Source: Candidatus Omnitrophota bacterium (GTDB taxonomy: Bacteria; Omnitrophota; Omnitrophia; Omnitrophales; Aquincolibacteriaceae). Taken from it: DNA of 33,324 bases. This document shows positions 1,243-20,329 of this stretch, in pieces; within the stretch, counting starts at the first letter, position 1; each line of letters begins with the position of its first letter. A program made the position numbers and the translations under genes. Below the pieces are notes generated by a model. The model had not been told where the DNA came from. It saw only the letters and a list, made by a program, of their open reading frames with translations, and did no database searches. The stretch is from positions 1 to 33,324 of the forward strand of contig JAZDJU010000086.1 in the NCBI GenBank assembly GCA_043803685.1, in the 5' to 3' direction.

Positions 1243-2609
1243 TTTTTCATCTCATGCATGAGCGTGTGGATCTCACCTTCCACGATCGCGCGGATCTCAT
1301 CGAGACGTTTCTGGGTCACGGCTTCAAAGCGCATCACGAGCACAGGCTGGGTGTTGGAAGCACGCACGAGTCCCCATCCGTCCGGGAACTGGACGCGGGC
1401 GCCATCGATATCCACGACCTCGTACTTTTTCTTGAGGTCGGCGACGGCTTGGGCCACGACCTTGAACTTGACGTCGTCGGGGCAATCGAAACGGATCTCA
1501 GGGGTCGAGACAAGCTCGGGCACATCGGCCAGAAGCGAGGAGAACGGCGCGTTCGCCTTGTCCAGGATCTCGAGGATGCGGCATGCCGCGTAGACGGCGT
1601 CATCGAAACCGAGCCAGCGGTCATTGAAGAACATGTGACCGCTCATTTCGCCCGCCATCTCGGCGTGGGTTTCTTTCATCTTGGCCTTGATCAGGGAGTG
1701 GCCGGTCTTCCACATGAGGGGTTTGCCGCCGCGTTTGGCGATATCGTCATAGATCTGCTTGGAGCTTTTGACGTCCCCGATGATCGTGGCGCCGGGTTTA
1801 CGGGTCAGGATCTCGCGGGCATACACGAGAAGAAGTTTGTCGCCGAAAATGACTTTCCCTTTTTCGTCCACGATACCAATGCGATCGGCGTCACCGTCAA
1901 ACGCGATCCCGATGTCGGCCTTCGTGCTAACCACTTTCTGTTGGAGATCTTTTAGATTGGCCGGGACTGAAGGGTCGGCCTGGTGGTCGGGCATCTTGGG
2001 ATCAAGGTTCTCATAAAGCACGGTCACATCATGGCCGAAGCGGCGGAGAAGCGCGGGCGCGGTGACGGCCGCCATACCATGTCCGGTGTCGACGATGACT
2101 TTGAGTTTCTTGGTGAACTTGAAGCCGGAGAAAATATAATCCTGGTAAGCCTTCACAAGCGCGTCGTGGTCGGGGTGCTCGACCTTGCCCTGGCCTGTCA
2201 CAAAATCGTTCTTCTCAATCGTTTCGCGGAGGCCCTGGATGTCCTTGCCATAAAAGGAGCGGCCGGAATGATGGAATTTGAAGCCATTCTCGTCCGGAGG
2301 ATTGTGGGAACCGGTGAGCGAGATGCCCGCATCGAGTTTATTATGCGTCACATAGAAATAGACGAGCGGGGTCGTGACAAGGCCGATCTCGACCACGGTG
2401 AGACCGCAGCTTTGAAGCCCCTTCGAGAGACCGCGGTAGAGGAACTCCGCGCTCCAGCGATGGTCGTGGCCGATCGCGATGGTGTGCTTCCCTTCGCGGA
2501 CAAGAAGCGATCCGAAAGATTTCCCGATCGCGAGCGCGACCTCTTCGGTGAGCTCTTTGCCCGCAATGCCGCGGATATCATATTCTCTGAAAATATGCGA
2601 TGGGATCAT
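1239..2609 (-). CDS. Phosphomannomutase/phosphoglucomutase (AlgC-like)
   Basis: IFREYDIRG N-terminus, catalytic TGSHNP, metal-binding FDGDADR, sugar-binding GEMSGH, and RASNTQP. Confidence 0.95.
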   Translation of the reverse strand: MIPSHIFREYDIRGIAGKELTEEVALAIGKSFGSLLVREGKHTIAIGHDHRWSAEFLYRGLSKGLQSCGLTVVEIGLVTTPLVYFYVTHNKLDAGISLTGSHNPPDENGFKFHHSGRSFYGKDIQGLRETIEKNDFVTGQGKVEHPDHDALVKAYQDYIFSGFKFTKKLKVIVDTGHGMAAVTAPALLRRFGHDVTVLYENLDPKMPDHQADPSVPANLKDLQQKVVSTKADIGIAFDGDADRIGIVDEKGKVIFGDKLLLVYAREILTRKPGATIIGDVKSSKQIYDDIAKRGGKPLMWKTGHSLIKAKMKETHAEMAGEMSGHMFFNDRWLGFDDAVYAACRILEILDKANAPFSSLLADVPELVSTPEIRFDCPDDVKFKVVAQAVADLKKKYEVVDIDGARVQFPDGWGLVRASNTQPVLVMRFEAVTQKRLDEIRAIVEGEIHTLMHEMKK

Positions 2610-2736
2610 GATGGTCTGGCCTTTCGGATTGTCGGATTCAGGATTGTCTGTTTCTCTGCGGATTCAATCTCAACATGCGTTCATCGTGACAGCCATCTTT
2701 ATGCCGCCACGTGACGCCATGGTGCAAAAAAAACAA

Positions 2737-2818
2737 TGCGAGCGAGAGGACTTGAACCTCCATGCCTTGCGGCGTCAGCCCCTCAAGCTGATGTGTCTGC
2801 CAGTTTCACCACGCTCGC
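2737..2818 (-). tRNA. tRNA-Leu(GAG), CCA not encoded
   Basis: GCGAGCG acceptor stem, D-loop GAAACTGGCAGA, anticodon arm TCAGC-TTGAGGG-GCTGA, long variable arm GCC-GCAA-GGC, T arm GGAGG-TTCAAGT-CCTCT, discriminator A. Confidence 0.95.
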
Positions 2819-2947
2819 ATGAACTAAAAAAATCCCGGGATTTCAATTTCATATTTGCGCCGCTGCGTAAGTACGGCTTCGTGACAATCCATAGACAACC
2901 GGCTACAAAGACCGCCACGCGCACATGAAATTCTAAAATTCAAAACC

Positions 2948-3331
2948 TTATGAGGACTTGCCCGTGCGTTTTCGCACAGCATTCAATTTTGCTTCTTTGA
3001 CAGCCTTGACCTTGCGCTCTTTTTCAAGCACCGCCTCAACCTGGCCAAGTTCGGTATCGAGCTTCTTGATCTCCCCGAGCACTTTTTTCATCTCGGACGC
3101 CTCGAGATCAAGCTTCTCGCCCTGTCTTACCGCGGTCTGATAAACCTGACTGCCCAGTTGCGAGAACGCCTTGGCGAGTTGATGCTCCAAAGTCGCCTTC
3201 TGAATCAGAAGCCGCGTCACATGCGCCGCTTCGCCCGTCTTCTCCGCCACAACCTTGGCGTACTTCTTCACGGTCTCAAAGGTCTCGTTGATGATCTTTT
3301 CCGACTTCGCGTAAAATTCTTTTTTATCCAC
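2948..3331 (-). CDS. Hypothetical helical/coiled-coil protein (127 aa)
   Basis: GTG start with GAGGTG SD; K/E/A/L-rich amphipathic helices; no recognisable motif. Confidence 0.75.
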   Translation of the reverse strand: MDKKEFYAKSEKIINETFETVKKYAKVVAEKTGEAAHVTRLLIQKATLEHQLAKAFSQLGSQVYQTAVRQGEKLDLEASEMKKVLGEIKKLDTELGQVEAVLEKERKVKAVKEAKLNAVRKRTGKSS

Positions 3332-3482
3332 ATTTCACCTCATGGGATGACGCCAGACGGGTTAAAAGCAGCCTTCTGTAGTCCCGAAGGCACTATGTTT
3401 TATCACATTTTTTAAAGATATCAAGCTCAGAATACGCCTCAAAAGACAACGCCCCTCCACCCCACGGAATGCACCCTTTTCT

Positions 3483-4538
3483 CTAGGGAACACCTTCTTT
3501 AGAAGCATTCCGTTTTTTCAGAAAATGAACGGAATCGCCCCACTCCCCATAACCGATCTTAGCGCCCGCCGCCTGCACACGATGCTCAAGACAGCCCTTG
3601 CACTGACGCGCGTTCTCATCCAGACACGGCTTGTTGTCATAAAGCTGATAGAACTTCCGGTAATCCGTGGGCGTCACGTTCGGCATGATGATATTCGCCC
3701 CGGCACGAACCCCCTTCTCCCGTCCCGAAGGATCCAGCGTCTGGAGCGCGGTCGACGCCGCGATATTCACATCCTTCAGAAACAGCCGCGTCAGCGCGAT
3801 CATCACAAGCCCGAGCCTCAAATTCTCCGCGGGATCATGCGCCGTAGGAACCAGCGGCGCATCCTTGTGTGGAATATAAGGCCCCATCCCGATCATATCG
3901 ACATCCTCGTTCTTAAAAAACAAGAGATCGTCGATCAGGTCCCTGTGGGTCTGGAATGGCAGCCCGATCATGACACCCGTTCCCACCTGATAGCCCGTGC
4001 GTCGAAGCGCGCGGAGGCATTCACGACGCGTCTCATAAGAGTGATCCTCGGGATGAAGCCGCCCATAAAGCTCCGGAGAACTCGTCTCGATCCTCAAAAG
4101 ATAGCGGTGAGCCCCCGCCTTGAACCATCGCTCGTAGGTTTCCGGGGACTGCTCCCCAAGCGAAAGCGTGATCCCGAGCTTTCCCGAAGTCGCGGCCTTG
4201 ATCTCCTGAAGGACTTCTTCGACAAAACGGACCGAAGCCTCATCCCGGCGTTCTCCGGACTGTAGAACGATCGAACCATAGCCCATTTCCAGAGACGCCT
4301 TCGCACATTCCAGGATCTCTGCCTTATCCATCGCAAAGCGCGTGACGTTCACGTTGCTTTTCCGGATCCCGCAATAATAGCAATCCTTCACGCAGTGATT
4401 GCTGTACTCGATGATACCGCGAAAATAGACCTTGGATCCCACATACCGGACAGCGCACGCACGCGCCTCACGGAAAAGATCGTCGAGCTTCGCCGGCTCC
4501 TTTTCGCTCAGCCAATGCAACGTTTCGTTCGAATTCAT
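3483..4538 (-). CDS. hydE: [FeFe]-hydrogenase maturation radical SAM protein HydE
   Basis: RGIIEYSNHCVKDCYYCGIR (CX3CX2C), YLLRIETS, GTGVMIGLP, DMIGMGPYIPH, GANIIMPN, YQLYDNKPC. Start reassigned to ATG 4538 (MNSNETL, SD GAAGG); the longer ORF extends through hydG and a repeat. Confidence 0.95.
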   Translation of the reverse strand: MNSNETLHWLSEKEPAKLDDLFREARACAVRYVGSKVYFRGIIEYSNHCVKDCYYCGIRKSNVNVTRFAMDKAEILECAKASLEMGYGSIVLQSGERRDEASVRFVEEVLQEIKAATSGKLGITLSLGEQSPETYERWFKAGAHRYLLRIETSSPELYGRLHPEDHSYETRRECLRALRRTGYQVGTGVMIGLPFQTHRDLIDDLLFFKNEDVDMIGMGPYIPHKDAPLVPTAHDPAENLRLGLVMIALTRLFLKDVNIAASTALQTLDPSGREKGVRAGANIIMPNVTPTDYRKFYQLYDNKPCLDENARQCKGCLEHRVQAAGAKIGYGEWGDSVHFLKKRNASKEGVP

Positions 4539-4566
4539 AAACACCTTCCGACAGACGGTATACGAT

Positions 4567-4627
4567 GAGCTGCGAGCCACGCGCCACGTGCCACGAATGC
4601 GTGGATCTTGGACCGTGGCTCGTGGTT
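4567..4627. repeat. Inverted heptamer-repeat hairpin (REP-like) between hydG and hydE
   Basis: GAGCTGC GAGCCAC GCGCCAC GTGCCAC G-AATG-CGTGGAT CTTGGAC CGTGGCT CGTGGTT. Confidence 0.75.
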
Positions 4628-6111
4628 CAAAGGAATAGATCCCTTTCCCCTTTTCGAACTCGTTCGAGGAATTGAAAGAAGGCCGGGAACCCTTGAGGAT
4701 TTCTCGTTTTGATCTCTTCGAGTTCTTTTTCAAGAACACGGAGCCCGACTTCGCGCGTCGCGGGCGTCGCGAAATCATCCAGCCATTCCTGAAAGGTCAG
4801 CACGGCGTTCAGTTTGCAGAACTTCCCTTCCTGGCCGCTGCGCAAAAGGTCCATGATGCATTTCCCCGTCCGCCCGCAGCGGTATCCCGCCGTACAAAAT
4901 GAGGTAATATAGCCCATCTCCGCAAAATCCCGGACGAGTTCATCCAGACTCCTCGTATCGCCCAGCATGAACTGCTGTCGTTCGGATTCCTGCCCTTCCT
5001 TCTCTTCACTGTAACTTCCGATCCCGATCTTCGTAGAAGCATCGGTCTGCGTGATCCCAAGGCCGATCGCGTCGCGCCGCATCTGGGCGGTTTCGCGCGC
5101 GGTGATGATCATCCCCGTGTATGGGATCGCGAGGCGAATGAGCAGGATGATCTTTTTAAAATCCTCGTCAGACACTTTATAGGGCGAATGCGCGGCATAT
5201 TCGGAGTTGAGTGCGGGTTCCATGCGCGGGAACGAAACCGTGTGCGGCCCGATCCCCATTTTGGCCTCCAGATGGATCGCGTGCTGAAGAAGCGCAAGCA
5301 CTTCGAAACGCCAATCATAAAGCCCGAACAGCGCTCCGATCCCCACATCGTCGATCCCCGCCTCCATCGCGCGGTGCATCGCGTAAAGTCGCCAGCGATA
5401 ATCGGATTTGATCGTCCCTTTCGGATGGAGCTTCGCGTAAGTCTCGTGATGGTAGGTTTCCTGAAAGACCTGATAAGTCCCGAGACCGCCGTCCCGGAGA
5501 CGGACAAGTTCCTCGACCGACATCGGCGCGGCATTCACATTGATGCGGCGAATATTGCCATAACCATGTTGGGTCGGCGTCTTCACGTCATAGATCGTCT
5601 TCATGCTCTCGAGAATATAATCGATCCCTGTCAGCGGATGCTCGCCGTAAACAGCGATGATCCGTTTGTGTCCGATCTTCCCCGTCAGAGCTTCGGTCTC
5701 TTTACGGACCTCCTCCATCGAAAGAATGCGACGTTTCGCCTTGAGATTCTCGTGTTTAAATCCGCAGTAGGCGCAATTATTGACGCAGAAATTCCCCATA
5801 TAAAGCGGGGCAAAGGTCACAATGCGGTTGTCATAGACCTTCTTCTTGATCCGGAGGGCCGCGCACTCCATCTCCTTGAGGATCTCGGGATCCCGAACAC
5901 GGATCAGCGTCGCGAGCTCTTCCGGCGTAAGCGTTTTCACTGCGAGCGAACGCTCGAGGATCGCGCGAACGGTCGCGGCGTCGGGTTCCCTGGCCGATTC
6001 GATCGTTTTCCAGATCGCGGCATCGTCGATAAAATCTTGGCCGTTGTCGAGATAACGATCGATCTGGTCCTGTTTGATACGCCCGGCGATCCAGGCCGTT
6101 TCCGTGCTCAT
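4627..6111 (-). CDS. hydG: [FeFe]-hydrogenase maturation radical SAM tyrosine lyase HydG
   Basis: FAPLYMGNFCVNNCAYCGF, GTYQVFQETYH, GIDDVGIGALFGL, GPHTVSFPR, and C-terminal auxiliary-cluster motif SFCTAGYRC-X19-C. Confidence 0.96.
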   Translation of the reverse strand: MSTETAWIAGRIKQDQIDRYLDNGQDFIDDAAIWKTIESAREPDAATVRAILERSLAVKTLTPEELATLIRVRDPEILKEMECAALRIKKKVYDNRIVTFAPLYMGNFCVNNCAYCGFKHENLKAKRRILSMEEVRKETEALTGKIGHKRIIAVYGEHPLTGIDYILESMKTIYDVKTPTQHGYGNIRRINVNAAPMSVEELVRLRDGGLGTYQVFQETYHHETYAKLHPKGTIKSDYRWRLYAMHRAMEAGIDDVGIGALFGLYDWRFEVLALLQHAIHLEAKMGIGPHTVSFPRMEPALNSEYAAHSPYKVSDEDFKKIILLIRLAIPYTGMIITARETAQMRRDAIGLGITQTDASTKIGIGSYSEEKEGQESERQQFMLGDTRSLDELVRDFAEMGYITSFCTAGYRCGRTGKCIMDLLRSGQEGKFCKLNAVLTFQEWLDDFATPATREVGLRVLEKELEEIKTRNPQGFPAFFQFLERVRKGERDLFL

Positions 6112-7364
6112 GATAAAGCCTCCTTACCTTTGATTTCGCGATACGCCGCAAGCGCCCCTGGAAAAGGCGCAAGCGTCCGTTCCAGAACACCTTGAACGAA
6201 CGAGATCGCGACCCCGTAATTCGTGATCGGAACACCTGCAGCCTTCGCTTTCTCGATCCGGGCAAGCATTTCCCGGCGCGTCAGCATGCAGGAGCCGCAG
6301 TGAATAATAAGTTTGTAGGATGCGAGGTCGTCCGGATAATCACGCCCCGCCGAACTCCGGATATCCAGCTCCACACCCGCGTATTGCCTGAGCCATCGCG
6401 GGATCTTCACACGACCAATATCATCCTCCACCGCGTGATGACTGCAGGATTCCGAGATCAGAACCCTATCGCCCGCCTTCAACCGGTCAATGGCCAACAC
6501 CCCTCGAACCATTTCGCTGAGATCTCCTTTGAGCCTTGAAAAAAGAATGGAGAACGTCGTGCATTTCACAGCCGGAGGCGTGTCCGCGACCATCTTGAGC
6601 ACCACCTGCGAGTCACAGACCACGATATTCGGAGGACTCTTGAGCTGACCCAACCAATGCGCATATTCCCGCTCCTTCACCACCAGCACCGCCGCGTCAC
6701 TATCCAGGGCCTCCCGGATCGTCTGCACCTGCGGCAGGATCAAACGGCCTTTCGGCGCCTCCAGATCGATCGGTACGACCATGACCGCGATCCCACCCGC
6801 CGGCACAAGATCGCCGATCAAAGGCGGCGGCTTCAAAAAGTCATCGGGACAAACTTCGAGCAGGAACTGCTTCAGAAGATTCACAGCACCATCGCGCTTT
6901 GAGCGGTCCGTGCTCGCGCAAGCGAGGATCCTCGGCGTCTTTTGTTTCAACTTGTCGAGAAAATCACCCGAAGGAATCTCCAGGTCGCTTTTGTTCACCA
7001 CAAGCACAAGAGGACTTTTTCGCGCCCCCGCCTCACGAATGACTTCTTCCTCAAATTCCGTCCACACCCCCGCCTCAAGAATCAATACCGTAACGTCCGA
7101 GCGGTCGAAAACTTTCCGGGTCCTTTCGATCCGCTTGGCGCCCAAGACAGACATATCGTCCAAACCTCCCGTATCGAGAAAAACCACAGGTCCCACCGGC
7201 AAAAGTTCCATGACCTTCTCGACCACATCGGTGGTCGTTCCAGGGACGGGCGAAGTAATGGCCACGTCCTGACCGGCCACCATGTTAAGGAAAGTCGACT
7301 TGCCGACATTGGTGCGGCCGAAGATCCCGATCTGAAGCCTGAGCCCCTTAGGTGTTTTTTCCAT
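6108..7364 (-). CDS. hydF: [FeFe]-hydrogenase maturation GTPase HydF
   Basis: P-loop GRTNVGKS, GTTTD, DTGG, NKSD, APKGRLILPQVQ, cluster ligands CSHH...HCGSC, TNYG. Start reassigned to ATG 7364 (MEKTPKGLR). Confidence 0.96.
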   Translation of the reverse strand: MEKTPKGLRLQIGIFGRTNVGKSTFLNMVAGQDVAITSPVPGTTTDVVEKVMELLPVGPVVFLDTGGLDDMSVLGAKRIERTRKVFDRSDVTVLILEAGVWTEFEEEVIREAGARKSPLVLVVNKSDLEIPSGDFLDKLKQKTPRILACASTDRSKRDGAVNLLKQFLLEVCPDDFLKPPPLIGDLVPAGGIAVMVVPIDLEAPKGRLILPQVQTIREALDSDAAVLVVKEREYAHWLGQLKSPPNIVVCDSQVVLKMVADTPPAVKCTTFSILFSRLKGDLSEMVRGVLAIDRLKAGDRVLISESCSHHAVEDDIGRVKIPRWLRQYAGVELDIRSSAGRDYPDDLASYKLIIHCGSCMLTRREMLARIEKAKAAGVPITNYGVAISFVQGVLERTLAPFPGALAAYREIKGKEALS

Positions 7365-8739
7365 GATCCTTGTACCCGAGTGATAAAAGATTCTGCGGAG
7401 AAAGCGCGCTGACCACAAGCTCCCGGCCCAGTCGTTCCTCCAAAAATGATCTCAAATTCTTCTGACCCGAAGCCTTGAACTCCTGAAGAAGGGTTCCCGC
7501 CTTCTCATAACCGATGTGGGGCACAAAGGCCGTCATGATCCCTTCCGAACGATCGACAAAGTCCCGGCATTTTTCGGCATCTGCCTGAATGCCTGCCACG
7601 TGCGTCTCAAACATCGCATCGGCACGGATCAAAAGCTCGATCGATCCCAGGAGCGCGTGGGCCAAAAGCGGCATGAATTCGCATATCTGGAACGTCGCGC
7701 GCGACGCCGCCTCCGTGACCAAAAGATCGTTCGCCATGACTTTGAGTCCCGCCTGCGTCACAGCCTCGAGAATGACGGGGTTCACCTTCCCCGGCATCAG
7801 TGAAGAACCCGCCTGAAGCTGCGGTAGCGTGATCTCTCCGAGAAGATTCATCAGCCGGAGATCGCCCGCGATCTTCACAAGATTACTGGCGTGCGCTTTC
7901 AGGATCCCGGATACTTCCACAAAGGGGTCCGCGTTCGCCGTCGTATCGATCATATTCTCGCTCCGGCTCAGACCCAGGCCCGTGATCTCGCGCAGTTTTT
8001 CGACCCCAAGAAAGATATAACGCTGAGGCGCGGCTAGCCCTGTCCCGATCGCGGTGCCGCCGAGGTTCACAACCCTCAAACGTTCTTCGCACTTGAAGGT
8101 GCGCCACCGGTCGCGCGCGAACGCCTCGGCAAAAGCCGCGCATTCCGCGCCCAGGGTCATCGGAACCGCCGCCTGAAGTTCCGTCCTCCCGATCTTCACG
8201 ATCCCGGCGAATTCCTCTTCCTTCACCTGGAACGCGCCCTGGAGTTTCGCCGCGGCCTCGCTCAATTCCCGAACTCCCTGGATCGCCGCCACGCGCAGGG
8301 CCGTAGGATAAACATCATTCGTGGATTGGTGCTTGTTCACATCCTCGATCGGATGGACAAGTTCATACTGGCCCTTGTGCCCCCCGAGGATCTCGATCGC
8401 GCGGTTCGCGATCACTTCATTGACATTCATATTCGTGGAGGTCCCGGCGCCACCCTGAAGCGCATCAAGCGGCCAGCAGGTATCCGGAAGCTTGCCCTGA
8501 AGGATCTCATCGCAGACGGTCAGGATCGCCTTAGCCTTCGCTTCGGGCAGATAACCCAACTCCCCGTTCGCGAGACATGCCGCTTTCTTGACCGACACAA
8601 GGGCCCGGATCAACCTGAGAGACACGCGCGATCCACTCAAGGGAAAATTCTCGATCGCCCTTTGAGTATGAATACCCCAATACGCGTCCGCAAGCACCTT
8701 CTTTTCTCCCAACGCATCCTTCTCAACGCGATAGTTCAT
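7348..8739 (-). CDS. aspA: Aspartate ammonia-lyase (fumarase/aspartase family)
   Basis: YWGIHTQRAIENF, QGGAGTSTNMNVNEV, QSTNDVYPTA, and signature GSSLMPGKVNP. Start reassigned to ATG 8739 (MNYRVEKD, SD GGAGA). Confidence 0.9.
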   Translation of the reverse strand: MNYRVEKDALGEKKVLADAYWGIHTQRAIENFPLSGSRVSLRLIRALVSVKKAACLANGELGYLPEAKAKAILTVCDEILQGKLPDTCWPLDALQGGAGTSTNMNVNEVIANRAIEILGGHKGQYELVHPIEDVNKHQSTNDVYPTALRVAAIQGVRELSEAAAKLQGAFQVKEEEFAGIVKIGRTELQAAVPMTLGAECAAFAEAFARDRWRTFKCEERLRVVNLGGTAIGTGLAAPQRYIFLGVEKLREITGLGLSRSENMIDTTANADPFVEVSGILKAHASNLVKIAGDLRLMNLLGEITLPQLQAGSSLMPGKVNPVILEAVTQAGLKVMANDLLVTEAASRATFQICEFMPLLAHALLGSIELLIRADAMFETHVAGIQADAEKCRDFVDRSEGIMTAFVPHIGYEKAGTLLQEFKASGQKNLRSFLEERLGRELVVSALSPQNLLSLGYKDHGKNT

Positions 8740-8753
8740 GCTGTTCTCCATCA

Positions 8754-8821
8754 AGTTCGGAGCGTGGAGTTCAGAGTTCGGAAAACTGATTTTAACCCCG
8801 AACTCCCATCTCACAATTCAT
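8754..8821. repeat. Inverted heptamer-repeat element between the TM1266-family gene and aspA
   Basis: AGTTCGG AGCGTGG AGTTCAG AGTTCGG ... AACCCCG AACTCCC ATCTCAC AATTCAT; the arms are complementary (GAGTTCGG/CCGAACTC). Confidence 0.65.
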
Positions 8822-8827
8822 GACTGA

Positions 8828-9076
8828 TTACTTCTTCGTCAGCGCGGATTTTACGGAAACGCCTTCCAACGCGCCGAGTTTCCCGGTCAAGGCACCCAAT
8901 TCATCCGTTGTCGCGTCCACGATCAAGGTGATCACGGAACATTTCCGCTCCCGGTAAGGAAGCCCCACGCGCGCCACAATGATGTCCCCGTGCGCCGAAA
9001 GAAGATCGTTCACCTGGTGCGCGGCCTTTTTCCGGTCTTCTACAATGATCCCGACAAATCCCAACCGTTTATCCAT
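8828..9076 (-). CDS. TM1266-family iron-only hydrogenase system putative regulator (ACT/NikR-C-like, 82 aa)
   Basis: MDKRLGFVGIIVEDR..A..VN.LLS..G.IIVARVGLPY...SVI.LIVDA..DELGALTGKLG.L.GVSVKS pattern; strong SD GAGGAGG at 9083-9089; first gene of the maturase cluster. Confidence 0.9.
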   Translation of the reverse strand: MDKRLGFVGIIVEDRKKAAHQVNDLLSAHGDIIVARVGLPYRERKCSVITLIVDATTDELGALTGKLGALEGVSVKSALTKK

Positions 9077-9099
9077 GATCTTCCTCCTCAAGGAACATT

Positions 9100-9136
9100 A
9101 AAAAAAATCCCAGCTCCTTCGAAAAGAAGCTGGGAT
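9100..9136 (-). terminator. Intrinsic terminator in the leader of the maturation operon
   Basis: ATCCCAGCTTCTT-TTCG-AAGGAGCTGGGAT: 13-bp stem with one G.U pair and a UUCG loop, followed by a T run. Confidence 0.9.
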
Positions 9137-9197
9137 CGGAAACTGTATGATTTTCCTTCCCTTGGCTTCAGGCCCGAAGGCCCTCTTCGTCAGGAAC
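9100..9197 (-). promoter_or_regulatory. Candidate transcription attenuator / riboswitch-like cis-regulatory RNA
   Basis: Three overlapping, mutually exclusive hairpins: 9157-9196, antiterminator 9126-9169, terminator 9107-9136 (see findings). Confidence 0.7.
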
Positions 9198-9232
9198 TCT
9201 TCAAATTTCAAATTTGAGATTTCAAATACTGA

Positions 9233-10984
9233 TTACCGCCTGTAAATGGGTAGCGGCTGATATTTCGTGTGAAGCAAATGATGGGATTTCTCGCTCAGCG
9301 GCTTCCCGAGAAATTCCTTGTAGAGCTGTTGGACATAAGGATTCTCATGGGAGCAACGAACCGTCTGGGCCTCGTCGTCCGAATAAAGCCCCTTCGCACG
9401 CGCGAGACGCAATTCGTCGGTCACACCATACGGTTGCCCGCCGCCGCCAACACAACCGCCAGGGCAAGCCATGACTTCGACAAAGTGATACGGAAGCGGT
9501 TTGCCTTCTTTCTGCGCTTTCCGGATCTGATCCAGCACATACTCCACATTGGCAAGACCATGGGCAACCGCGATCTTCACTTCGGTCCCTTCGATATTGA
9601 TCGAAGTTTCCTTAACACCTTTCAGACCGCGGACATTCTCAAATTCGACCTTGGGAAGCTTCTTGCCCGTCACAAAGGAGTAAGCCGTCCGGAGCGCGGC
9701 TTCCATCACGCCACCCGTCGCTCCAAAGATCGTCCCGGCGCCGCTATAGTCCCCCAGGATATGATCGCATTCTTCATCCGGCAGGTTCGCAAAATCAATA
9801 CCCGCCTGTTTGATCATACGGGCCAATTCGCGGGTCGTAAGCACCACATCGACATCCTGGAATCCGGAAGCGGACATCTCGGTGCTCCTCGAGATCTCGA
9901 ATTTCTTGGCCGTACACGGCATCACGGAGATCACCTTGAGCTTCGACGCATCGATCTTGTTCTTCTCCGCATAATAAGTCTTCACGAGCACCCCTAGCAT
10001 TTCGTGCGGGGATTTCGCCGAAGAAAAATGAGGGATCATATCGCTATGGAATTTCTCCATAAAATCCACCCAGGACGGACAGCAGGTCGTGATCAAGGGC
10101 AACACGCCCTTTTTATTCACAAAACGTTCAATGAATTCGCTCGCCTCTTCCATGATCGTAACGTCGGCGGCAAAATTCGTGTCAAAGACCGCCTTGAAAC
10201 CCATGCGCCGGAGCGCCGTGTACATCTTCTTGGTAACATTGGCACCGATCGGAAAACCGAACGCCTCGCCGAGCGCCACACGCACCGCGGGAGCGATCTG
10301 GACCACACAGTATTGCTCGGGATCGCGAAGCGCCTTCCAGGCAAGCATCGTGTCGTCTTTTTCAAAGATCGCGCCCGTCGGGCAATGGGCAGCGCACTGG
10401 CCGCAACGGACACAGGGCGACTCCGCGAGACTGATGTCCCCCGCGGGAGCCATTCTTGTATTGAACCCACGCTGAAGGAATGTGAGCGCCCAAACGTCCT
10501 GCACGTTCTGGCAGACATCCACACAGCGTCCGCAATTGATGCATTTCCGGGGCTCGAGCACGATATTCCCGGTCGAATCATCCTTGGGAATGTCGCGGAC
10601 GATCTTTTCATAGAATTCTTCCCGGATCCCGAAATCCGCCACGAGGGACTGGAGTTCACAATTATTGTTCCGGCCGCAAGTCAGACATTCGTTCGGATGA
10701 TTGGAAAGGAAAAGTTCGACCACGGTCCGGCGTATGGAAACGATCTCCGGATCGTGCGTAATGATGTCCATGCCTTCTTCCAGAGGGGTCGAGCAAGCGC
10801 GAAGCATTTTCCGGTTCCCTTTGACCCTTACAAGACAGATGCCGCAGGCCGCCGAGGCGTGAAGATAGGCGTCCGGATGCTTGCAAAGCGTGGGGATCTT
10901 GATCTGTGCTTTCCGTGCCGCGTCCAGGATCGTGGTGTTCTCCGGCACCTCGACCTTGATTCCATTGATCAATGCTTTAACCAT
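9233..10984 (-). CDS. hydA: [FeFe]-hydrogenase catalytic subunit (group A, HndD/HydA type) of the tetrameric enzyme
   Basis: N-terminal [2Fe-2S], His-ligated [4Fe-4S] (HPNECLTC) and 2x[4Fe-4S]; H-cluster motifs TTCCPSW, MPCTAKKFE, EVMACPGGCVGGGGQP; SHHLLHT. Start reassigned to ATG 10984 (SD GGAG). Confidence 0.95.
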   Translation of the reverse strand: MVKALINGIKVEVPENTTILDAARKAQIKIPTLCKHPDAYLHASAACGICLVRVKGNRKMLRACSTPLEEGMDIITHDPEIVSIRRTVVELFLSNHPNECLTCGRNNNCELQSLVADFGIREEFYEKIVRDIPKDDSTGNIVLEPRKCINCGRCVDVCQNVQDVWALTFLQRGFNTRMAPAGDISLAESPCVRCGQCAAHCPTGAIFEKDDTMLAWKALRDPEQYCVVQIAPAVRVALGEAFGFPIGANVTKKMYTALRRMGFKAVFDTNFAADVTIMEEASEFIERFVNKKGVLPLITTCCPSWVDFMEKFHSDMIPHFSSAKSPHEMLGVLVKTYYAEKNKIDASKLKVISVMPCTAKKFEISRSTEMSASGFQDVDVVLTTRELARMIKQAGIDFANLPDEECDHILGDYSGAGTIFGATGGVMEAALRTAYSFVTGKKLPKVEFENVRGLKGVKETSINIEGTEVKIAVAHGLANVEYVLDQIRKAQKEGKPLPYHFVEVMACPGGCVGGGGQPYGVTDELRLARAKGLYSDDEAQTVRCSHENPYVQQLYKEFLGKPLSEKSHHLLHTKYQPLPIYRR

Positions 10985-11019
10985 AACGATTTTTCTCCAG
11001 GATAAAAACTTATGTTGTA

Positions 11020-12759
11020 TTAACTGCGACTGATGGCGCGCGGCTTGCAAACCTCAAAACATTGGCCACAGCGGGTGCATTTGGTCTGATCGATCAGATA
11101 GCCGCTTTCGCGGTTCCCGGAAATGGCGCCCACGGGACATGCCTTGAAACACATACCGCACTTCACGCACTTTTCGCTCAGGATCATGAACCGGATCAGT
11201 TTTTCGCACTTGCAGGCCGGGCATTTCTTTTTATTCACATGAGCGTCATATTCCGCGCGGTAATAATGCAGCGTCGAAAGCACCGGGTTGGGCGCCGTTT
11301 GCCCGAGACCGCAGAGGGATGCCTTTTGCATGGCCACCGAGATCTGCTCCAGCTGTTCCAGGTCCTTTTGCGTCCCGGTCCCGTCCGTGACCTTTTTGAG
11401 AAGTCTCAACATTTGCGTCCCGCCGATACGGCAAGGCGCGCATTTACCGCAAGATTCATCCACGCAGAACCCCAGGTAGAATTTCGCGATATCCGCCATG
11501 CAATCGTCCTCGTCCATCACGATCATGCCGCCGGAGCCCATAATGGAACCCATCTTCTGCAAACTTTCATAATCCACTTTGGTCTGAAAAAATTCTTTCG
11601 GGATCACGCCGCCGGAAGGACCGCCGGTCTGGATCGCCTTGACGTTTTTCCCGCTAAGAGCCCCGCCGCAGATCCCGTAAACGATATCCTCGATCGCAGT
11701 ACCCATGGGCACTTCAACCAGTCCGGAATTCTTCACCTTCCCGGTCACGGCAAATACTTTAGTTCCCTTGGAACTTTCGGTCCCGATCCCCGCGAACCAG
11801 GCGCCGCCTTTCAAGAAAATGACGGGAACATTGGCCAGCGTCTCCACGTTATTGATACAGGTCGGTTTGCCCCAAAGTCCTTTGATCGACGGGAAAGGAG
11901 GCCGCGGACTCGGATAGCCGCGTTTACCTTCGATCGAAGCGATCAGAGCGGTTTCTTCTCCGCACACAAAAGCTCCGGCGCCCAAACGGATCTCAAGATC
12001 CAAATTGAAGGACGAGCCGAGGATCTTTTCACCGAGGATCCCCCGATCGCGGCACTGCTGAATGGCTTTTTCGATCCTTTCGATCGCGAGAGGATATTCC
12101 GCGCGAATATAAAAATAACCCTTGGAAGCGCCGATCGCGTAAGCGCCGATGATCATCCCCTCGATCACGGAATGCGGGTCACCTTCGAGGACACTGCGAT
12201 CCATGTAAGCTCCAGGATCGCCTTCATCGCCGTTACAGATGATGTATTTCTGGTCACCCTGAGCTTTACGCGTGATATCCCATTTCAACCCCGTGGGAAA
12301 TCCCGCGCCGCCGCGACCGCGAAGCCCGGCCGTTTTCATCTCCTGCGCCACTTTTTCGGGCGTGTATTCGCCGAGAACCTTCGCCAAAGCCTGATACCCG
12401 TCGCGGGCGATATAATCTTCAATGCTTTCCGGATCGATCACCCCGCAATTACGAAGCACGATACGAAGCTGTCTGGAGGGTTCCGTATTCGCCTTCCCCT
12501 CCACGGCCTTCCCACCGATCACGCTCGTCTGAACGATCTCAGAGATATCCTGGTCCTGAACATTCGTATAAAGGAAATTCTCCGGGAGAACACGAACCGC
12601 CATCCCTTGGCCGTAGATACCAATATCCGCCACGCGGACTAGCTGGACTTCGTTCTCTAGCCCCTTTTCCCTTATAATCCCGAGAAAAAGCCCGTAGAAA
12701 TCCCGCGTCCTGTCTTTTCCCGTGATCGCTGTATCCTTGATAAAAACCGTCTTGCCCAT
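11020..12759 (-). CDS. hydB: NuoF-like FMN/NAD(H)-binding hydrogenase subunit (HndC/HydB)
   Basis: GLRGRGGAGFPTGLKW, NGDEGDPGAYMDR, GAGAFVCGEETAL, GGPSGG, ESCGKCAPCRIG, CGLGQ, and a C-terminal 2x[4Fe-4S] domain. Confidence 0.93.
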   Translation of the reverse strand: MGKTVFIKDTAITGKDRTRDFYGLFLGIIREKGLENEVQLVRVADIGIYGQGMAVRVLPENFLYTNVQDQDISEIVQTSVIGGKAVEGKANTEPSRQLRIVLRNCGVIDPESIEDYIARDGYQALAKVLGEYTPEKVAQEMKTAGLRGRGGAGFPTGLKWDITRKAQGDQKYIICNGDEGDPGAYMDRSVLEGDPHSVIEGMIIGAYAIGASKGYFYIRAEYPLAIERIEKAIQQCRDRGILGEKILGSSFNLDLEIRLGAGAFVCGEETALIASIEGKRGYPSPRPPFPSIKGLWGKPTCINNVETLANVPVIFLKGGAWFAGIGTESSKGTKVFAVTGKVKNSGLVEVPMGTAIEDIVYGICGGALSGKNVKAIQTGGPSGGVIPKEFFQTKVDYESLQKMGSIMGSGGMIVMDEDDCMADIAKFYLGFCVDESCGKCAPCRIGGTQMLRLLKKVTDGTGTQKDLEQLEQISVAMQKASLCGLGQTAPNPVLSTLHYYRAEYDAHVNKKKCPACKCEKLIRFMILSEKCVKCGMCFKACPVGAISGNRESGYLIDQTKCTRCGQCFEVCKPRAISRS

Positions 12760-12779
12760 ATTTTCTCCGCTTCCTTGAA

Positions 12780-13130
12780 TTAATTAAGCTTCATGTCATA
12801 AATGCGGTCGTTCACAAGCATCTTGCCGCACACGTGTTTTTCCATGATCTTCGTCGCGACGTCCTTATCGACCTTGCCGTAGAACACCGTCGGCATGTTC
12901 TTGATATGGACTTCCACGAGAGGCTCCGCCGAGCACATCCCCACGCACCCGCACTTCTTGATCTCCACATCGGCGTTGTGCTTGCGGCTCTCTTCAAGGA
13001 GAGTCTCGTAGACTTCCTTGGCTCCGGCCGCGATCCCGCAGGTGCTGAACCCCACCTTGATCCAATTCCGGTCCGCTTCCGCGTGGCTTTTCTTGATCGA
13101 ATCCAAACCCTGTTTATTCAATTTAGTCAT
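12780..13130 (-). CDS. Thioredoxin-like [2Fe-2S] ferredoxin subunit (HndB-like)
   Basis: VGFSTCGIAAGA...GCVGMCSAEPLVEV...FYGKV motif; lies between the NuoE-like and NuoF-like genes. Confidence 0.88.
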   Translation of the reverse strand: MTKLNKQGLDSIKKSHAEADRNWIKVGFSTCGIAAGAKEVYETLLEESRKHNADVEIKKCGCVGMCSAEPLVEVHIKNMPTVFYGKVDKDVATKIMEKHVCGKMLVNDRIYDMKLN

Positions 13131-13146
13131 AAAGGTCTCTCTCCCG

Positions 13147-13638
13147 TCATCCCGCCACGGGGGCTTCAGCTTCTTCTGAATAATGAGCGATGATGTCGCC
13201 CATGTCTTTTTTCTTCACGCCGCCATAGATCTTCTCGCCGATCTTCACCACCGGAGCCAACCCGCAACAACCCAGGCACCGCACCATTTCCAGATGGAAC
13301 TGGCCGTCCTTGGTCGTCTCCCCGGGTTTCACGCAAAGAAGATGCTCCAGTTCCCCCAGGATCTCGGCGCCGCCTTTTAGATAGCACGCGGTCCCCATAC
13401 AAACGGAGATCGTGTGTTTCCCGGGCGGGGTCAGACGGAAAAAATGATAGAACGTGATAACTTCATAGATCCGCGCAAGAGGCACATCCAGGATCTCGGA
13501 AAGCACGAGCGAAACATCGCGCGGCACATACCCGTAACGATTCTGGATCTGGTGCAGCACCATGATGAGATTCCCTTCCTTGCCCTTCCAGGAATCCGCG
13601 ATCTCTTTGACTTCTTTTACCAAAACAGCTTTTTCCAT
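13147..13638 (-). CDS. hydC: NuoE-like [2Fe-2S] hydrogenase subunit (HndA/HydC)
   Basis: LIMVLHQIQ..YGY, V.TFY, VCMGTACYLKG, RCLGCCGLAP; SD AGGAG. Confidence 0.93.
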   Translation of the reverse strand: MEKAVLVKEVKEIADSWKGKEGNLIMVLHQIQNRYGYVPRDVSLVLSEILDVPLARIYEVITFYHFFRLTPPGKHTISVCMGTACYLKGGAEILGELEHLLCVKPGETTKDGQFHLEMVRCLGCCGLAPVVKIGEKIYGGVKKKDMGDIIAHYSEEAEAPVAG

Positions 13639-13667
13639 GAAAAAACTCCTCTTCCCCGGTATCTTTT

Positions 13668-14012
13668 CTATGACTTCTTCATTTGATCAATGGCTTTATC
13701 CACAAGCGTTACATAGGTCATGGCGCTGGAACCGCCCACGAGAACGGCCACCATGCAAGACTCCAGCATTTCTTCTTTCGTCCATCCCGCATCCAGACAA
13801 TGCTGGACCGCGCGCGGGATACACACCGGGCACTTCTGGGTCACACTGGCCACGAGAAGCAGCAACCATTTGGTCTTCTCGGGAACCTTCCCGGACTTTA
13901 TAAGAATTTCTTTTTCCTTCACGAACGCATCATACTGCGAAGGCAGGGTCTTGCGGATGTCGACCATGGCTTCGTTGAACTGTTTCAAAAGTTTCAGCGC
14001 ATCGTATTCCAT
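13668..14012 (-). CDS. Carboxymuconolactone decarboxylase/AhpD-like protein with CxxC
   Basis: KTKWLLLLVASVTQKCPVCI..AV..CLDAGWTKEEMLE...VA..VGG pattern. Start taken at ATG 14012 (SD GAGGGGG). Confidence 0.85.
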   Translation of the reverse strand: MEYDALKLLKQFNEAMVDIRKTLPSQYDAFVKEKEILIKSGKVPEKTKWLLLLVASVTQKCPVCIPRAVQHCLDAGWTKEEMLESCMVAVLVGGSSAMTYVTLVDKAIDQMKKS

Positions 14013-14041
14013 CGTAACCCCCTCAGGACCTTTTGAAGCGT

Positions 14042-14659
14042 TCACTTCGGAGAATCACAAAAAAGCGATAAAAACTCGATCGTAAAATCCATGTTCCGGA
14101 CCTGAACTTTGGCCGGCACGCTGATCGACGCCGGCGCGAAATTAACGATCCGCGTCAACCCCGAGAGCACCATATAATCCGCGACTTCCTGACAATGTTC
14201 TTTCGGCACCGCGATGATCCCGATATGCGCATGGAGCCGTTTGATGATCTCAGGCGCCCTCTCCACCGGATAGATCCGGACCCCGTCGATCCTCTTCCCA
14301 ACCTTCTGGTCAGAGACGTCAAAGGCCGCGACTAGCTTCACTTTATCCCGGTGGTAACCCGGATATCTCAAAATAGCGGAACCGAGATTCCCGACCCCAA
14401 AAAGCACCAGGTGCACGACGTTTTTCTGAAGAAGAAAATCTTCGAGCGTTTTCTTCAACTCCACCGTCCTGTAACCGATCCTCGGTTTCCCGATCTTTTT
14501 GAAATTCGAGATATCTTTGCGGATCTTGACGTCCGAAAGACCCGTAATCTCTGAAAGCTGTTTCGAAGAAACCAGATAGCGTTTCTCCTTCAGCAGGCTT
14601 TCCAGGGTCCTGATGTAAAGAAGAACCCGGGTGATCGTTTTGCGGGGGATTTTTTTCAT
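14042..14659 (-). CDS. rex: Redox-sensing transcriptional repressor Rex
   Basis: KIP..TI.R...Y.R.L, SSKQL...IRKDIS.F...G...GY winged-helix domain; Rossmann GVGNLG..I..Y; AAFD; NFAP. Confidence 0.92.
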   Translation of the reverse strand: MKKIPRKTITRVLLYIRTLESLLKEKRYLVSSKQLSEITGLSDVKIRKDISNFKKIGKPRIGYRTVELKKTLEDFLLQKNVVHLVLFGVGNLGSAILRYPGYHRDKVKLVAAFDVSDQKVGKRIDGVRIYPVERAPEIIKRLHAHIGIIAVPKEHCQEVADYMVLSGLTRIVNFAPASISVPAKVQVRNMDFTIEFLSLFCDSPK

Positions 14660-14665
14660 GTCAAA

Positions 14666-14683
14666 TCGTGAAATTCCGAACGA
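14666..14683. promoter_or_regulatory. Putative Rex operator 1 (TCGTGAAATTCCGAACGA)
   Basis: 18-bp imperfect palindrome related to TTGTGAA-N4-TTCACAA; closely matches the site at 20230; lies between the -10 box and the rex ATG. Confidence 0.7.
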
Positions 14684-14687
14684 TTGA

Positions 14688-14716
14688 ATTTTACCAATTT
14701 TTTAAAAACAGCGCAA
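14688..14716 (-). promoter_or_regulatory. Sigma70-type promoter of the rex-hnd operon
   Basis: TTGCGC-N17-TAAAAT with extended TGn. The -35 overlaps a possible terminator hairpin AGCGCA-N9-TGCGCT-GTTTTT that follows the upstream hydA stop. Confidence 0.65.
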
Positions 14717-14729
14717 GAAAAAAATGCGC

Positions 14730-16502
14730 TCAGGTTTTGGGGCGTTCGTGGTAATGCGTGTGAAGCAGATGGTGTGATTTTTCGCCGAGCGGCTTTTTCA
14801 GGAAATCGTCATAAAGCTTTTTGACCTGGGGATTGGTGTGGGACTTCCGGAGTTTCTTCCCGGCATCCTCTTTATAGATGGCGCCAATACGCGCGAGTCG
14901 AACGGAATCGTCGGTATAGCGAGGCTGTCCGCCCCCGCCGATACAACCGCCGGGGCACGTCATGACCTCAATGAAATGATAGTGCGCTTTACCTTCTTTG
15001 ATCTGATCCAGCAAATGCGCCGCGTTCGCCAGACCATGCGCGACCGCTACTTTGACTTCCACATTCTCCAAGAAGGACCATTCCGGGACGGTCCCCTTGA
15101 TCACAAGCGAGGCTTCCTTGATCCCTTGCAATCCTTCCACCGGCGCAAGACGAAGGTCCGCAGCCGGAAATTCGCGACCGGTGACGATTTCATAAACTGT
15201 TCTCAGCGCCGCTTCCATCACACCGCCGGTATTGGCAAAGATATCCGCGGCCCCGGTCGAGATCCCGAGAGGAGAATCCATCGTCCCGTCCTCCAAGCTC
15301 CTAAAATCGATACCGGCCGATTCGATCATGAATCCAAGCTCACGCGTGGTGAGAACATAATCAACATCCTGAAAACCGCTCGAGTTCATTTCAGGACGTT
15401 GGGCCTCGAATTTTTTTGCTGTGCAAGGCATGATCGAGACAACGATCATGTCCTTAGGATCGACGCCCTTTTGGGTCGCATAATAAGTTTTCGCGAGCGC
15501 GCCAAACATCTGCTGAGGCGATTTGCAGGAGGAGAGGTTCGGCAGGAATTCCGGATAATAGTATTCAGAGAACTTGATCCAACCCGGCGAACAGCTCGTG
15601 AACATCGGAAGCGACACAGGCTTCTTCTCGACCAAGGCCTGTTTGAGCCGTGTGAGAAGTTCCGTCCCCTCTTCGATGATGGTCAGATCGGCCGTGAAAT
15701 TCTTATCGAAGACCGAATGAAAACCGACCCGCCGGAGGGCCGTCACCATCTTGCCGGTCACCAGGGTCCCCGGAGGATAACCAAAACATTCGCCAAGCGC
15801 GGCGCGGATCGCCGGAGCCGTTTGCACGACCACGTGCTTCGTTTTGTCTTCGAGCGCCGCCCACACTTTATCGATATCATTTTTTTCCTGGATCGCACCC
15901 ACCGGACAGATGGCCGCGCATTGGCCGCACTGAACGCAAGCGACGCTGTTCAGATCCATCGCAAAAGCCGGACCGATCACGGTTTTGTAGCCGCGATTTT
16001 GCGGAAAAAGTGAGCCGACACCCTGCACTTCCCGGCAGACCGTCACGCATCGGCGGCATTTGATGCATTTTCCGGAATCCCGCACAAGCGCCGGAGTACT
16101 GGTGTCGATCTGAGCCACCGGTTTCTCGCCCTTGTAGTGGATGTCTTCGATCCCCAGATGCGACGCGATCTCTTTGAGTTCACAATCCTCACTACGCGTG
16201 CAGTACTGACAGCTTCCTTCATGTTCGCTCAGGAGCAGTTCCACCACCGTCCGCCGCGCTTCCCGCACTCTGTTATTGTTGGTGTGCACCCGCATACCGT
16301 CCACCGCAGGCGTGGAGCAGGAAGCCACAAGCGTCTTCGCGCCTTCCACTTCCACAAGACAAACACGGCAAGCCCCGATCGGCATCTTTCCCTCGAGGTA
16401 GCAGAGGGTCGGTATCTTGATCCCCAAAGCCTTGGCCGCGTCATAAAGGGTCGCGCCCGCCTTGACCTCCACTTCCTGATGATTCACGAAAAGTTTTGGC
16501 AT
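14730..16502 (-). CDS. hydA: [FeFe]-hydrogenase catalytic subunit (group A3-like HydA) of the trimeric enzyme
   Basis: [2Fe-2S] (IPTLC..ACRVC..SC), HEGSCQYC, 2x[4Fe-4S]; H-cluster motifs TSCSPGW, MPCTAKKFE, EVMTCPGGCIGGGGQP. Confidence 0.95.
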   Translation of the reverse strand: MPKLFVNHQEVEVKAGATLYDAAKALGIKIPTLCYLEGKMPIGACRVCLVEVEGAKTLVASCSTPAVDGMRVHTNNNRVREARRTVVELLLSEHEGSCQYCTRSEDCELKEIASHLGIEDIHYKGEKPVAQIDTSTPALVRDSGKCIKCRRCVTVCREVQGVGSLFPQNRGYKTVIGPAFAMDLNSVACVQCGQCAAICPVGAIQEKNDIDKVWAALEDKTKHVVVQTAPAIRAALGECFGYPPGTLVTGKMVTALRRVGFHSVFDKNFTADLTIIEEGTELLTRLKQALVEKKPVSLPMFTSCSPGWIKFSEYYYPEFLPNLSSCKSPQQMFGALAKTYYATQKGVDPKDMIVVSIMPCTAKKFEAQRPEMNSSGFQDVDYVLTTRELGFMIESAGIDFRSLEDGTMDSPLGISTGAADIFANTGGVMEAALRTVYEIVTGREFPAADLRLAPVEGLQGIKEASLVIKGTVPEWSFLENVEVKVAVAHGLANAAHLLDQIKEGKAHYHFIEVMTCPGGCIGGGGQPRYTDDSVRLARIGAIYKEDAGKKLRKSHTNPQVKKLYDDFLKKPLGEKSHHLLHTHYHERPKT

Positions 16503-19648: not shown

Positions 19649-20220
19649 GACTTGGCCTCCTTCACATCTTCGCCTTCATTTTGGTACTGACTGATGATGT
19701 CGCGGATCCTGGCGGACTTCACGCGTTGGTGCACATCGTCATTGACCATGGCGACAGGCGCCAGGCCGCACGCGCCAAAGCACCGCCCCACTTCAAGAGA
19801 AAACATCCGGTCCGGTGTCGTTTCTCCCACATTGATCTTGAGATTCTTTTTGAAAGCTTCGAGGACTTCCTTGCCGCCTCGAACATAGCAGGCCGTTCCA
19901 AGACACACGCGCACAATGTTTTTGCCGCGGGGCACGGTTGAGAAAAAAGAATAGAAAGACACCACCCCGGTCACTTCGCTGTAAGGGATCTTGAGCCGGA
20001 GACTGATGTGCTTGAGAACACAGGAAGGAAGATAACCGAAAAGATTCTGGGCTGTCTGCAGGATCGGGATCAGCGCGCCATCGGTCTTGGCAAAACCGTC
20101 GATCACCGCGTCAAGACTGCGGAGCATTTCCTCATCGGTCGGCTGACAACTGCATCCCGTGGAAGGCTGCTTCGGATCCTGGGTTTTCGTTTCTGGATTA
20201 TTCAACAATTCGCCTGTCAA
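19645..20220 (-). CDS. hydC: NuoE-like [2Fe-2S] subunit (HydC); start codon uncertain (TTG)
   Basis: LIPILQTAQ..FGYLP, VVSFY, VCLGTACYVRG, RCFGACGLAP. Alternative TTG starts at ~20205-20208. Confidence 0.9.
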   Translation of the reverse strand: MTGELLNNPETKTQDPKQPSTGCSCQPTDEEMLRSLDAVIDGFAKTDGALIPILQTAQNLFGYLPSCVLKHISLRLKIPYSEVTGVVSFYSFFSTVPRGKNIVRVCLGTACYVRGGKEVLEAFKKNLKINVGETTPDRMFSLEVGRCFGACGLAPVAMVNDDVHQRVKSARIRDIISQYQNEGEDVKEAKS

Positions 20221-20229
20221 AATATAAAA

Positions 20230-20247
20230 TTGTGAAATAAAGAACGA
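20230..20247. promoter_or_regulatory. Putative Rex operator 2 (TTGTGAAATAAAGAACGA)
   Basis: Perfect TTGTGAA half-site plus the same GAACGA second half as operator 1; 10 nt downstream of the predicted -10 box. Confidence 0.7.
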
Positions 20248-20257
20248 TTGGGAGGAT

Positions 20258-20285: not shown

Positions 20286-20329
20286 TTCTTCCGGCACATT
20301 TTTTTTACAAAAATACAAAAATGTAGTGT

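Follow-up and report, generated by a model that had tools for sequence, protein, structure and literature searches.

The window analysed here is a stretch of 33,324 nucleotides from a Candidatus Omnitrophota bacterium, and the genes and leader elements described below lie on its minus strand. Matches to NCBIfam and Pfam give the gene order rex, an AhpD/CMD-like gene, a nuoE-like gene, a 2Fe-2S ferredoxin gene, a nuoF-like gene and hydA, followed after a gap of 156 nt by a TM1266-family gene, an aspA-like gene, hydF, hydG and hydE. The head of the operon is rex (14659-14042; NCBIfam), the gene of a redox-sensing repressor. The gene upstream of the leader, hydA (9233..11050, stop codon at 9235-9233), encodes a group A6 NADH-dependent [FeFe] hydrogenase (NCBIfam NF040763, 816 bits against a cut-off of 765). 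Downstream of the leader, the TM1266-family gene (8828..9076) encodes a protein of 82 residues (TIGR03959, 109 bits against a cut-off of 60.8; PF21699). The remaining genes proposed as controlled (3483..8814) match their NCBIfam models above cut-off: the aspA-like ammonia-lyase gene (8814-7348; NF008909), hydF (7418-6108; TIGR03918), hydG (6111-4627; TIGR03955) and hydE (4778-3483; TIGR03956). The genes flanking the leader are those named in the original prediction, which had been made from the letters alone.

PMC11736057 describes aspA as commonly linked to hyd operons and as a possible source of nitrogen for the dithiomethylamine bridge, which accounts for the aspA-like gene here. The longest open reading frames of hydE and hydG overlap by 152 nt (4627-4778) and those of aspA and hydF by 71 nt (7348-7418); because the HydE family match begins at residue 81, the true start of hydE is probably further downstream. 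A second group-A6 hydA is found upstream (14730-16502), near a gene for a 1048-aa NuoF-like/GltD-like fusion (16502-19648), a NuoE-like gene (19645-20220) and a GltD-like gene (20330-21724), and covariance models run over the window place no copy of the RNA motif described below near this region (14730-21724). In a giant open reading frame of 3314 aa (23180-33124) the only Pfam matches are to YDG and FecR domains, close to the C-terminal end.

The leader between hydA and the TM1266-family gene had been proposed to hold a 5' hairpin, an antiterminator and a terminator, and every stretch quoted for these elements is present on the minus strand, letter for letter. The 5' hairpin reads as described at 9196-9157. 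It falls within a conserved element at 9155..9197, our sensor hairpin and proposed anti-antiterminator, which is matched by two covariance models (R1, 37.6 bits, E 1.7e-05; R2, 36.3 bits, E 5.4e-06). P1 of this hairpin pairs CCU (9194-9192) with AGG (9162-9160), the inner helix consists in the window of one G-C pair only (9188 with 9165), P2 with its UUCG loop spans 9184-9170, and the internal loop is conserved. The 3' half of the hairpin (GAAGCCAAGGGA, 9158..9169) can instead pair with 9135-9126, which gives the antiterminator at 9169-9126; enclosed by it is a spacer hairpin, GGAAA...UUUCC (9138..9156), seen in leader folds, the sequence of which is not conserved among relatives. The 5' half (GUUCCU..CGAA, 9186..9197) is complementary to the apex of the terminator (9123-9113; UUCG, A, AGGAGC), with a duplex energy of -12.3 kcal/mol by RNAduplex. 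The intrinsic terminator (9100..9137) has a stem of 12-14 bp at 9137-9106, a four-nucleotide UUCG loop at 9123-9120 and eight T directly after the stem (9107-9100). It stands, as predicted, ahead of the Shine-Dalgarno sequence GAGGAGG (9089-9083) and the ATG (9076-9074) of the TM1266-family gene, the reading frame of which was checked.

Folding energies single out two of these elements. The terminator folds at -19.2 kcal/mol (z -4.41) and the antiterminator (9126-9169) at -15.0 kcal/mol (z -4.11), and for each none of 200 shuffled sequences folds as well; the whole 141-nt leader gives a z of -3.09, with 1 of 200 shuffles as good. A terminator consensus scan of 2500-17000 returned the leader terminator as its longest stem, with 14 pairs, and the same interval holds no excess of terminator-like sites (20 found against 17.1 expected). 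The antiterminator pairing also appears in the minimum-free-energy (MFE) fold of the window transcript when this is ended at the terminator loop. The 5' hairpin alone folds at -14.3 kcal/mol (z -0.83), and 44 of 200 shuffles are as good. Because this energy is unremarkable, the case for the hairpin had to rest on comparison across genomes.

For this comparison an alignment of 36 TM1266-family proteins served as the query in a scan of species-representative genomes, which returned 569 relatives. The best 80 were used, giving 81 sources together with the window; as all loci were found through TM1266, the link of the motif to that gene is partly an effect of sampling. Most of these best 80 are labelled as Omnitrophota MAGs, as are by name the closest homologues of the TM1266-family protein of the window; other labels are Planctomycetota, Auribacterota, Lentisphaerae, Verrucomicrobiota (Pelagicoccus), Fibrobacterota and Clostridia. 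Hand-made motif finders, based on a regular expression and on constrained folding, were dropped as too noisy in favor of covariance models. As a seed, 56 of the 81 leaders were picked by a loose regular expression and by eye and were aligned with MAFFT. R1 was built from this alignment and searched against the window and the 80 loci, 488,966 nt, on both strands.

At E<=1 the model matches 74 of the 81 sources, once in each, and every match lies upstream of TM1266 and on its strand; no other match at this threshold occurs on either strand of the 488,966 nt. In the window itself R2, run with filters off, scores 36.3 bits at 9155-9197 and 14.1 bits at its next best site. The conserved core reads, on the 5' side, yCCUG, C or A, GG, two to four bases ending in A, and AGG; on the 3' side, after a variable hairpin, it reads CCUGA, two bases, C, one base and AAGGG. 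In most loci a strong terminator comes next, with a 5' arm that usually starts (U)CCC. The homologous leaders keep the hairpin of the original prediction, its P2 and inner helix covarying, and a terminator comes after it. The stretch GACGAAGA, for which conservation had been expected, is not conserved as such in the aligned leaders, whose core differs from it.

The seven sources below the threshold are of two kinds. Four motif-free loci (L055, L063, L076 and L079) have a gap of at most 41 nt upstream of TM1266 and no hyd genes within 3 kb. The other three carry weak variants of the motif at the expected place (L064, L066 and L075, with 9.0, 15.7 and 9.4 bits for R1 and 13.4, 19.2 and 12.8 bits for R2). 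Three TM1266 loci of Bacillota from a plasmid collection (L081-L083) gave no significant match and no score above 9.2 bits. By eye, the Acetoanaerobium TM1266 leader among them (L083, 2880-2965) has the look of a diverged copy (CCUGAUAG...CUUCAAGGAUC) with its own terminator, the loop of which is complementary to AAGGAUC; with R1 it scores only 5.5 bits.

Covariation bears on the helices unequally. RNAalifold, applied to the MAFFT alignment of 56 leaders, returns P1 (CCU/AGG), a 2-bp inner helix (GG/CC) and P2, stacked on one another, with compensatory changes in five of the nine pairs. Standard pairs fill 93.5% of the cells of this alignment as against 84.3% in shuffles, double-change cells number 58 as against 21.7, and the covariation score is 0.414 as against 0.233; none of 500 shuffles reached the observed value in any of the three measures, counts which are not probabilities, the shuffles ignoring the relatedness of the sequences. 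When the 3' partner columns are slid by one position, pairing falls to 58-65%. The model-fitted alignment of the 74 matches gives the same picture. Most of the signal comes from P2, which varies freely in sequence and length while its pairing is kept (C-G 25, G-C 11, A-U 7 and U-A 6, for example), and the inner helix adds 13 double changes across its two pairs. P1 is invariant, without a single double-sided change, and is conserved without support from covariation. G-U pairs are frequent, with 45 at one pair of P2, which shows that the helix exists on this strand only and as RNA. Mutual information over all pairs of columns gave nothing beyond P2 and subtype signals. A conserved, structured sensor with covariation is thus seen in 74 of 81 sources, with none of 500 shuffles at the observed score in either alignment. 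It is this conservation in the aligned leaders, and not folding energy, that raises the predicted hairpin above chance.

Terminators were located by an automatic rule that requires a hairpin with an energy of at most -9 kcal/mol and a U-run at its end. The rule placed one in 68 of the 74 motif-bearing sources. The distance from the sensor to the hairpin so chosen is 6-28 nt in 66 of these 68, and further downstream in the other two, 196 nt in L032 and 113 nt in L053. A terminator-like hairpin is visible by eye in L003, L053, L062 and L041. For L029 and L039, both motif-bearing, a U-tract terminator was found neither by the rule nor by eye.

Both halves of the sensor are complementary to this terminator. 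The 3' half (...C.AAGGGA) can pair with the base of the terminator 5' arm, which is the antiterminator of the original prediction, now seen in the relatives as well. The 5' half (UCCUG.GG..) can pair in many loci with the terminator apex, a relation absent from that prediction; the duplex reaches -23.5 kcal/mol in L043. Matching changes are found on the two sides: the hairpin has CUCUG and the terminator CAGAG in L031, the corresponding sequences are UUCUA and UAGAA in L064, and CGAUAA goes with UUAUCG in L025 and L022. Mean duplex energies were compared by 10,000 permutations of the terminators among 66 distinct loci. The 5' half pairs at -10.93 kcal/mol with its own terminator and at -9.39 kcal/mol with those of other loci, the 3' half at -11.37 and -9.64 kcal/mol, and in neither case was any of the 10,000 permutations as good. 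The differences are modest but consistent, about 1.6 kcal/mol. When the own terminator is shuffled, the energies are -8.16 kcal/mol for the 5' half and -8.67 kcal/mol for the 3' half.

Folding of the transcripts points to the direction of the switch. In RNAs ended at the terminator loop, P1 is part of the MFE structure in none of 68 loci, as against about 15% of folds in controls with shuffled terminators, and forcing the sensor hairpin costs 8.6 kcal/mol, as against 4.6 kcal/mol with shuffled terminators. At least four nucleotides of the 3' half are paired with the terminator region in the MFE structure of 49 of these 68 shortened transcripts, and at least four of the 5' half in only 29 of 68. 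In the full-length RNA the terminator is part of the MFE structure in 58 of 68. The pairing of the expression platform thus overlaps the sensor, in the complementarity of both halves to their own terminator and in the transcript folds. These folds disfavour the sensor hairpin, which suggests that read-through is the default state, and they fit the proposed logic in which the formed hairpin would set the terminator free and turn expression off. The sensor hairpin would be the likelier binding state, since the antiterminator would place the conserved loop nucleotides in ordinary duplexes.

We consider it quite probable, on comparative sequence evidence, that the leader is a conserved cis-acting attenuator of riboswitch type between hydA and the H-cluster maturation operon, and that it works as RNA. 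The analysis shows its conservation, its covariation, the terminator and the alternative complementarities; that an effector binds the hairpin, and which way the switch works, is what we infer. The nascent RNA would first fold the small hairpin, with P1, the 2-bp inner helix, the conserved internal loop and the variable P2. P1 would be weak alone, and without a stabilizer the RNA made downstream would invade the hairpin: the base of the terminator 5' arm (UCCC...) would pair with the hairpin 3' half (...AAGGGA) and, in many loci, the terminator apex would pair with the 5' half (UCCUG...) as well. The terminator 3' arm would be left without a partner, and RNA polymerase would read into TM1266-(aspA)-hydF-hydG-hydE. 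An effector that stabilizes the hairpin would allow the terminator to form, and transcription would end after hydA, making this an OFF switch. Cells must balance an abundant hydrogenase against catalytic amounts of maturases, and an element kept in dozens of mostly uncultured species would be a concrete control point between the structural and the maturation genes. Whatever the effector, it may offer a regulatory part for engineered hydrogen production.

Searches of Rfam 15 gave no family for this element. At gathering scores cmscan finds over the whole window only a tRNA, at 2737-2818, and over twenty of the related loci it finds no match; the absence of a known family from the leader, on which the claim of novelty depended, is thereby confirmed for Rfam 15. 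At E<=10 nothing in the leader comes near a threshold, the best scores being those of PyrR (23.1 bits against 54), the L10 leader (20.6 against 44) and NsiR1 (20 against 39). Identity with PyrR (RF00515) or the L10 leader was rejected, both lying far below the gathering score with alignments that rest on the terminator. In the PyrR alignment the well-matched columns fall on the terminator stem and the U-run, and the PyrR binding loop, mostly skipped, has no match. Searches of full texts open to all readers yielded no paper that describes an RNA element upstream of TM1266 or of the hyd genes for maturation; the accounts of the HydE/F/G pathway in the papers searched describe no cis-regulatory RNA and do not address the balance between hydrogenase and maturases.

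Among known systems, the leader is close in layout to two groups. Transcriptional OFF riboswitches with small hairpin aptamers, such as preQ1-I and the THF-II/folE motif, likewise combine a short conserved sensor carrying an internal loop, a P1 whose 3' strand is shared with the antiterminator, and an intrinsic terminator just before the controlled genes. Unlike them, the leader has no match in Rfam 15 and lies between two co-directional genes rather than at a 5' end, and in many loci its terminator apex also pairs with the sensor 5' half. PyrR attenuators (RF00515) share with it the logic of anti-antiterminator, antiterminator and terminator; in these, too, the regulated operon begins with a candidate gene, that of the effector protein, and copies between cistrons occur. 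The leader differs from them in a context unrelated to pyrimidines and in its core, CCUG...AAGG in place of the PyrR loop. A further likeness, an RNA switch linked to hydrogenase genes, is offered by the Moco/Wco riboswitches, the only riboswitches connected with hydrogenases in the papers searched: tandem Wco riboswitches upstream of ferredoxin hydrogenase genes are described in PMC9481103. These belong to a much larger RNA family, which has no match here, and concern a tungsten cofactor, not H-cluster maturation. The leader appears to be a previously undescribed and widely conserved candidate attenuator of riboswitch-like kind.

As to what would stabilize the hairpin, we lean, at somewhat less than even odds, toward a small molecule or ion bound directly by the RNA; this is plausible because several phyla share the core without variation and because its size resembles that of other small riboswitches. 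If the element binds a metabolite it would be a new orphan riboswitch class, and the ligand would point to the signal of H-cluster demand. The TM1266-family protein as effector, a candidate by its position, is a serious though tentative possibility, and another factor takes what is left.

With the TM1266-family protein as effector the RNA mechanism would be the same, and the control an autoregulatory attenuation in the manner of PyrR or HutP. The product would bind the conserved internal loop, lock the hairpin and terminate transcription, so that the level of maturases would be low and steady alongside strong transcription of hydABC; the position of an OFF switch behind hydA would make sense as negative feedback by a product of the operon. 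TM1266 directly follows the element in all 74 cases, while the second gene varies: among 73 loci it is AspA in 35, HydF in 31, HydG in three and HydE in two, and two have none or reach the contig edge. The constancy of the first gene is owed in part to sampling through TM1266 itself. Although long annotated as "putative iron-only hydrogenase system regulator", the protein is an 82-residue ferredoxin-like domain without a DNA-binding domain. It matches PDB entry 2nzc (E 5.8e-17), the crystal of which has four chains. A structure model (pLDDT 92.9) has a NikR-C/ACT-like, ferredoxin-like fold, and Foldseek aligns it with 2nzc at a TM score of 0.92, with NikR C-terminal domains at about 0.8, with ACT domains and, more weakly, with the ferredoxin-like ribosomal proteins S10 and S6. 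NikR C-terminal and ACT domains share with it the beta-alpha-beta-beta-alpha-beta fold. Unlike NikR, the protein has no ribbon-helix-helix DNA-binding domain, and sequence identity is 10-20%. A domain of this kind could add a small-molecule or metal input.

In the alignment of 36 TM1266 proteins, eight residues, six of them basic and two aromatic, vary hardly or not at all. The two strands of the sensor internal loop are alike, CCUG...AAGG on both, and nearly two-fold symmetric, as would suit a symmetric oligomer. Against such a role, RNA binding is to our knowledge not known for the NikR-C/ACT fold family, and the Foldseek neighbours, metal-binding NikR domains and ACT domains, neither show nor exclude it. 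The homologues of the four motif-free loci keep all of the conserved residues without a motif or hyd genes nearby, and the three Bacillota TM1266 loci also lack the motif; no residue of TM1266 discriminates motif-bearing from motif-free loci. We regard it as less likely than not that the protein is an RNA-binding attenuation protein that recognizes the CCUG/AAGG loop and terminates transcription after hydA. If TM1266 does bind the element, a function would be assigned to a widespread protein family; its RNA binding, if true, would be a new use of the NikR-C/ACT fold and would make it the first known regulator of H-cluster maturation.

Close homologues away from hyd genes (L055, L063, L076, L079 and L081) suggest that the TM1266 family may not be specific to hydrogenases. 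The gene stands in L063 between an epimerase and an MFS-acyltransferase-AMP-binding fusion, and in Vescimonas (L081) it precedes an ABC transporter. Shewanella HydX was considered as an equivalent of TM1266 and rejected, its size being 23.9 kDa according to PMC4694547.

The position of the element bears on a further alternative, that there is no switch at all and that the stem at 9137-9106 is a leaky terminator of the hydA operon that sets a fixed low ratio of maturases, the conserved hairpin serving the stability or processing of the mRNA 3' end. In 50 of 73 motif-bearing loci the HydA match ends within 120 nt upstream of the motif; the nearest upstream match is HydA further away in 12 and a NuoE-like protein in four, and two reach the contig edge. 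Between the upstream stop codon and the start of the element there are in many loci 12-40 nt, too few to leave much space for a promoter, and in seven loci with a long gap before TM1266 (L024, L025, L065, L067, L068, L073 and L080) it stays beside hydA. Both observations speak for this alternative. A plain terminator, however, needs no conserved upstream hairpin, and it leaves unexplained why the halves of that hairpin track their own terminator beyond any of the permutations, with the matching changes of L031 and L064 in addition. The element is also present in five loci (L016, L018, L026, L042 and L061) with no HydA match within about 2.8 kb upstream. We judge a mere leaky terminator to be improbable. 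Since the attenuator adjoins the upstream gene, commonly hydA, most copies are probably transcribed from the promoter of the hydrogenase operon and would gate the maturation genes within it; the five copies without hydA upstream would then need a promoter of their own.

Two side observations concern this intergenic region. The distance from terminator to TM1266 is 240-840 nt in the seven long-gap loci, and in L080 and L073 the stretch TTGACATTACTATATTTT, promoter-like by eye, lies before TM1266. Seven loci (L019, L021, L023, L037, L049, L060 and L074) have an extra open reading frame of about 110-165 aa between hydA and the motif.

A role of the conserved sequence at the DNA level, as the operator of a regulator such as Rex that binds DNA, is very improbable. 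In its favor, rex heads the operon and AT-rich palindromes adjoin the element at 9208-9232; against it, the helices keep G-U pairs, which would not match in a DNA palindrome or in the opposite strand, and P2 keeps its pairing through free variation of sequence and length. A Rex-box consensus has no match at up to three mismatches in the whole window, a result from which nothing follows on control by Rex. The AT-rich palindromic stretch just after the hydA stop codon (9208..9232), made of TTTGAAAT/ATTTCAAA-like repeats between that codon and the sensor hairpin, lies outside the conserved covariance model, and the MFE structure of the leader shows it as paired. Its role could be that of an operator or of an additional RNA hairpin, and similar palindromes are seen by eye upstream of the motif in L003, L004 and L007.
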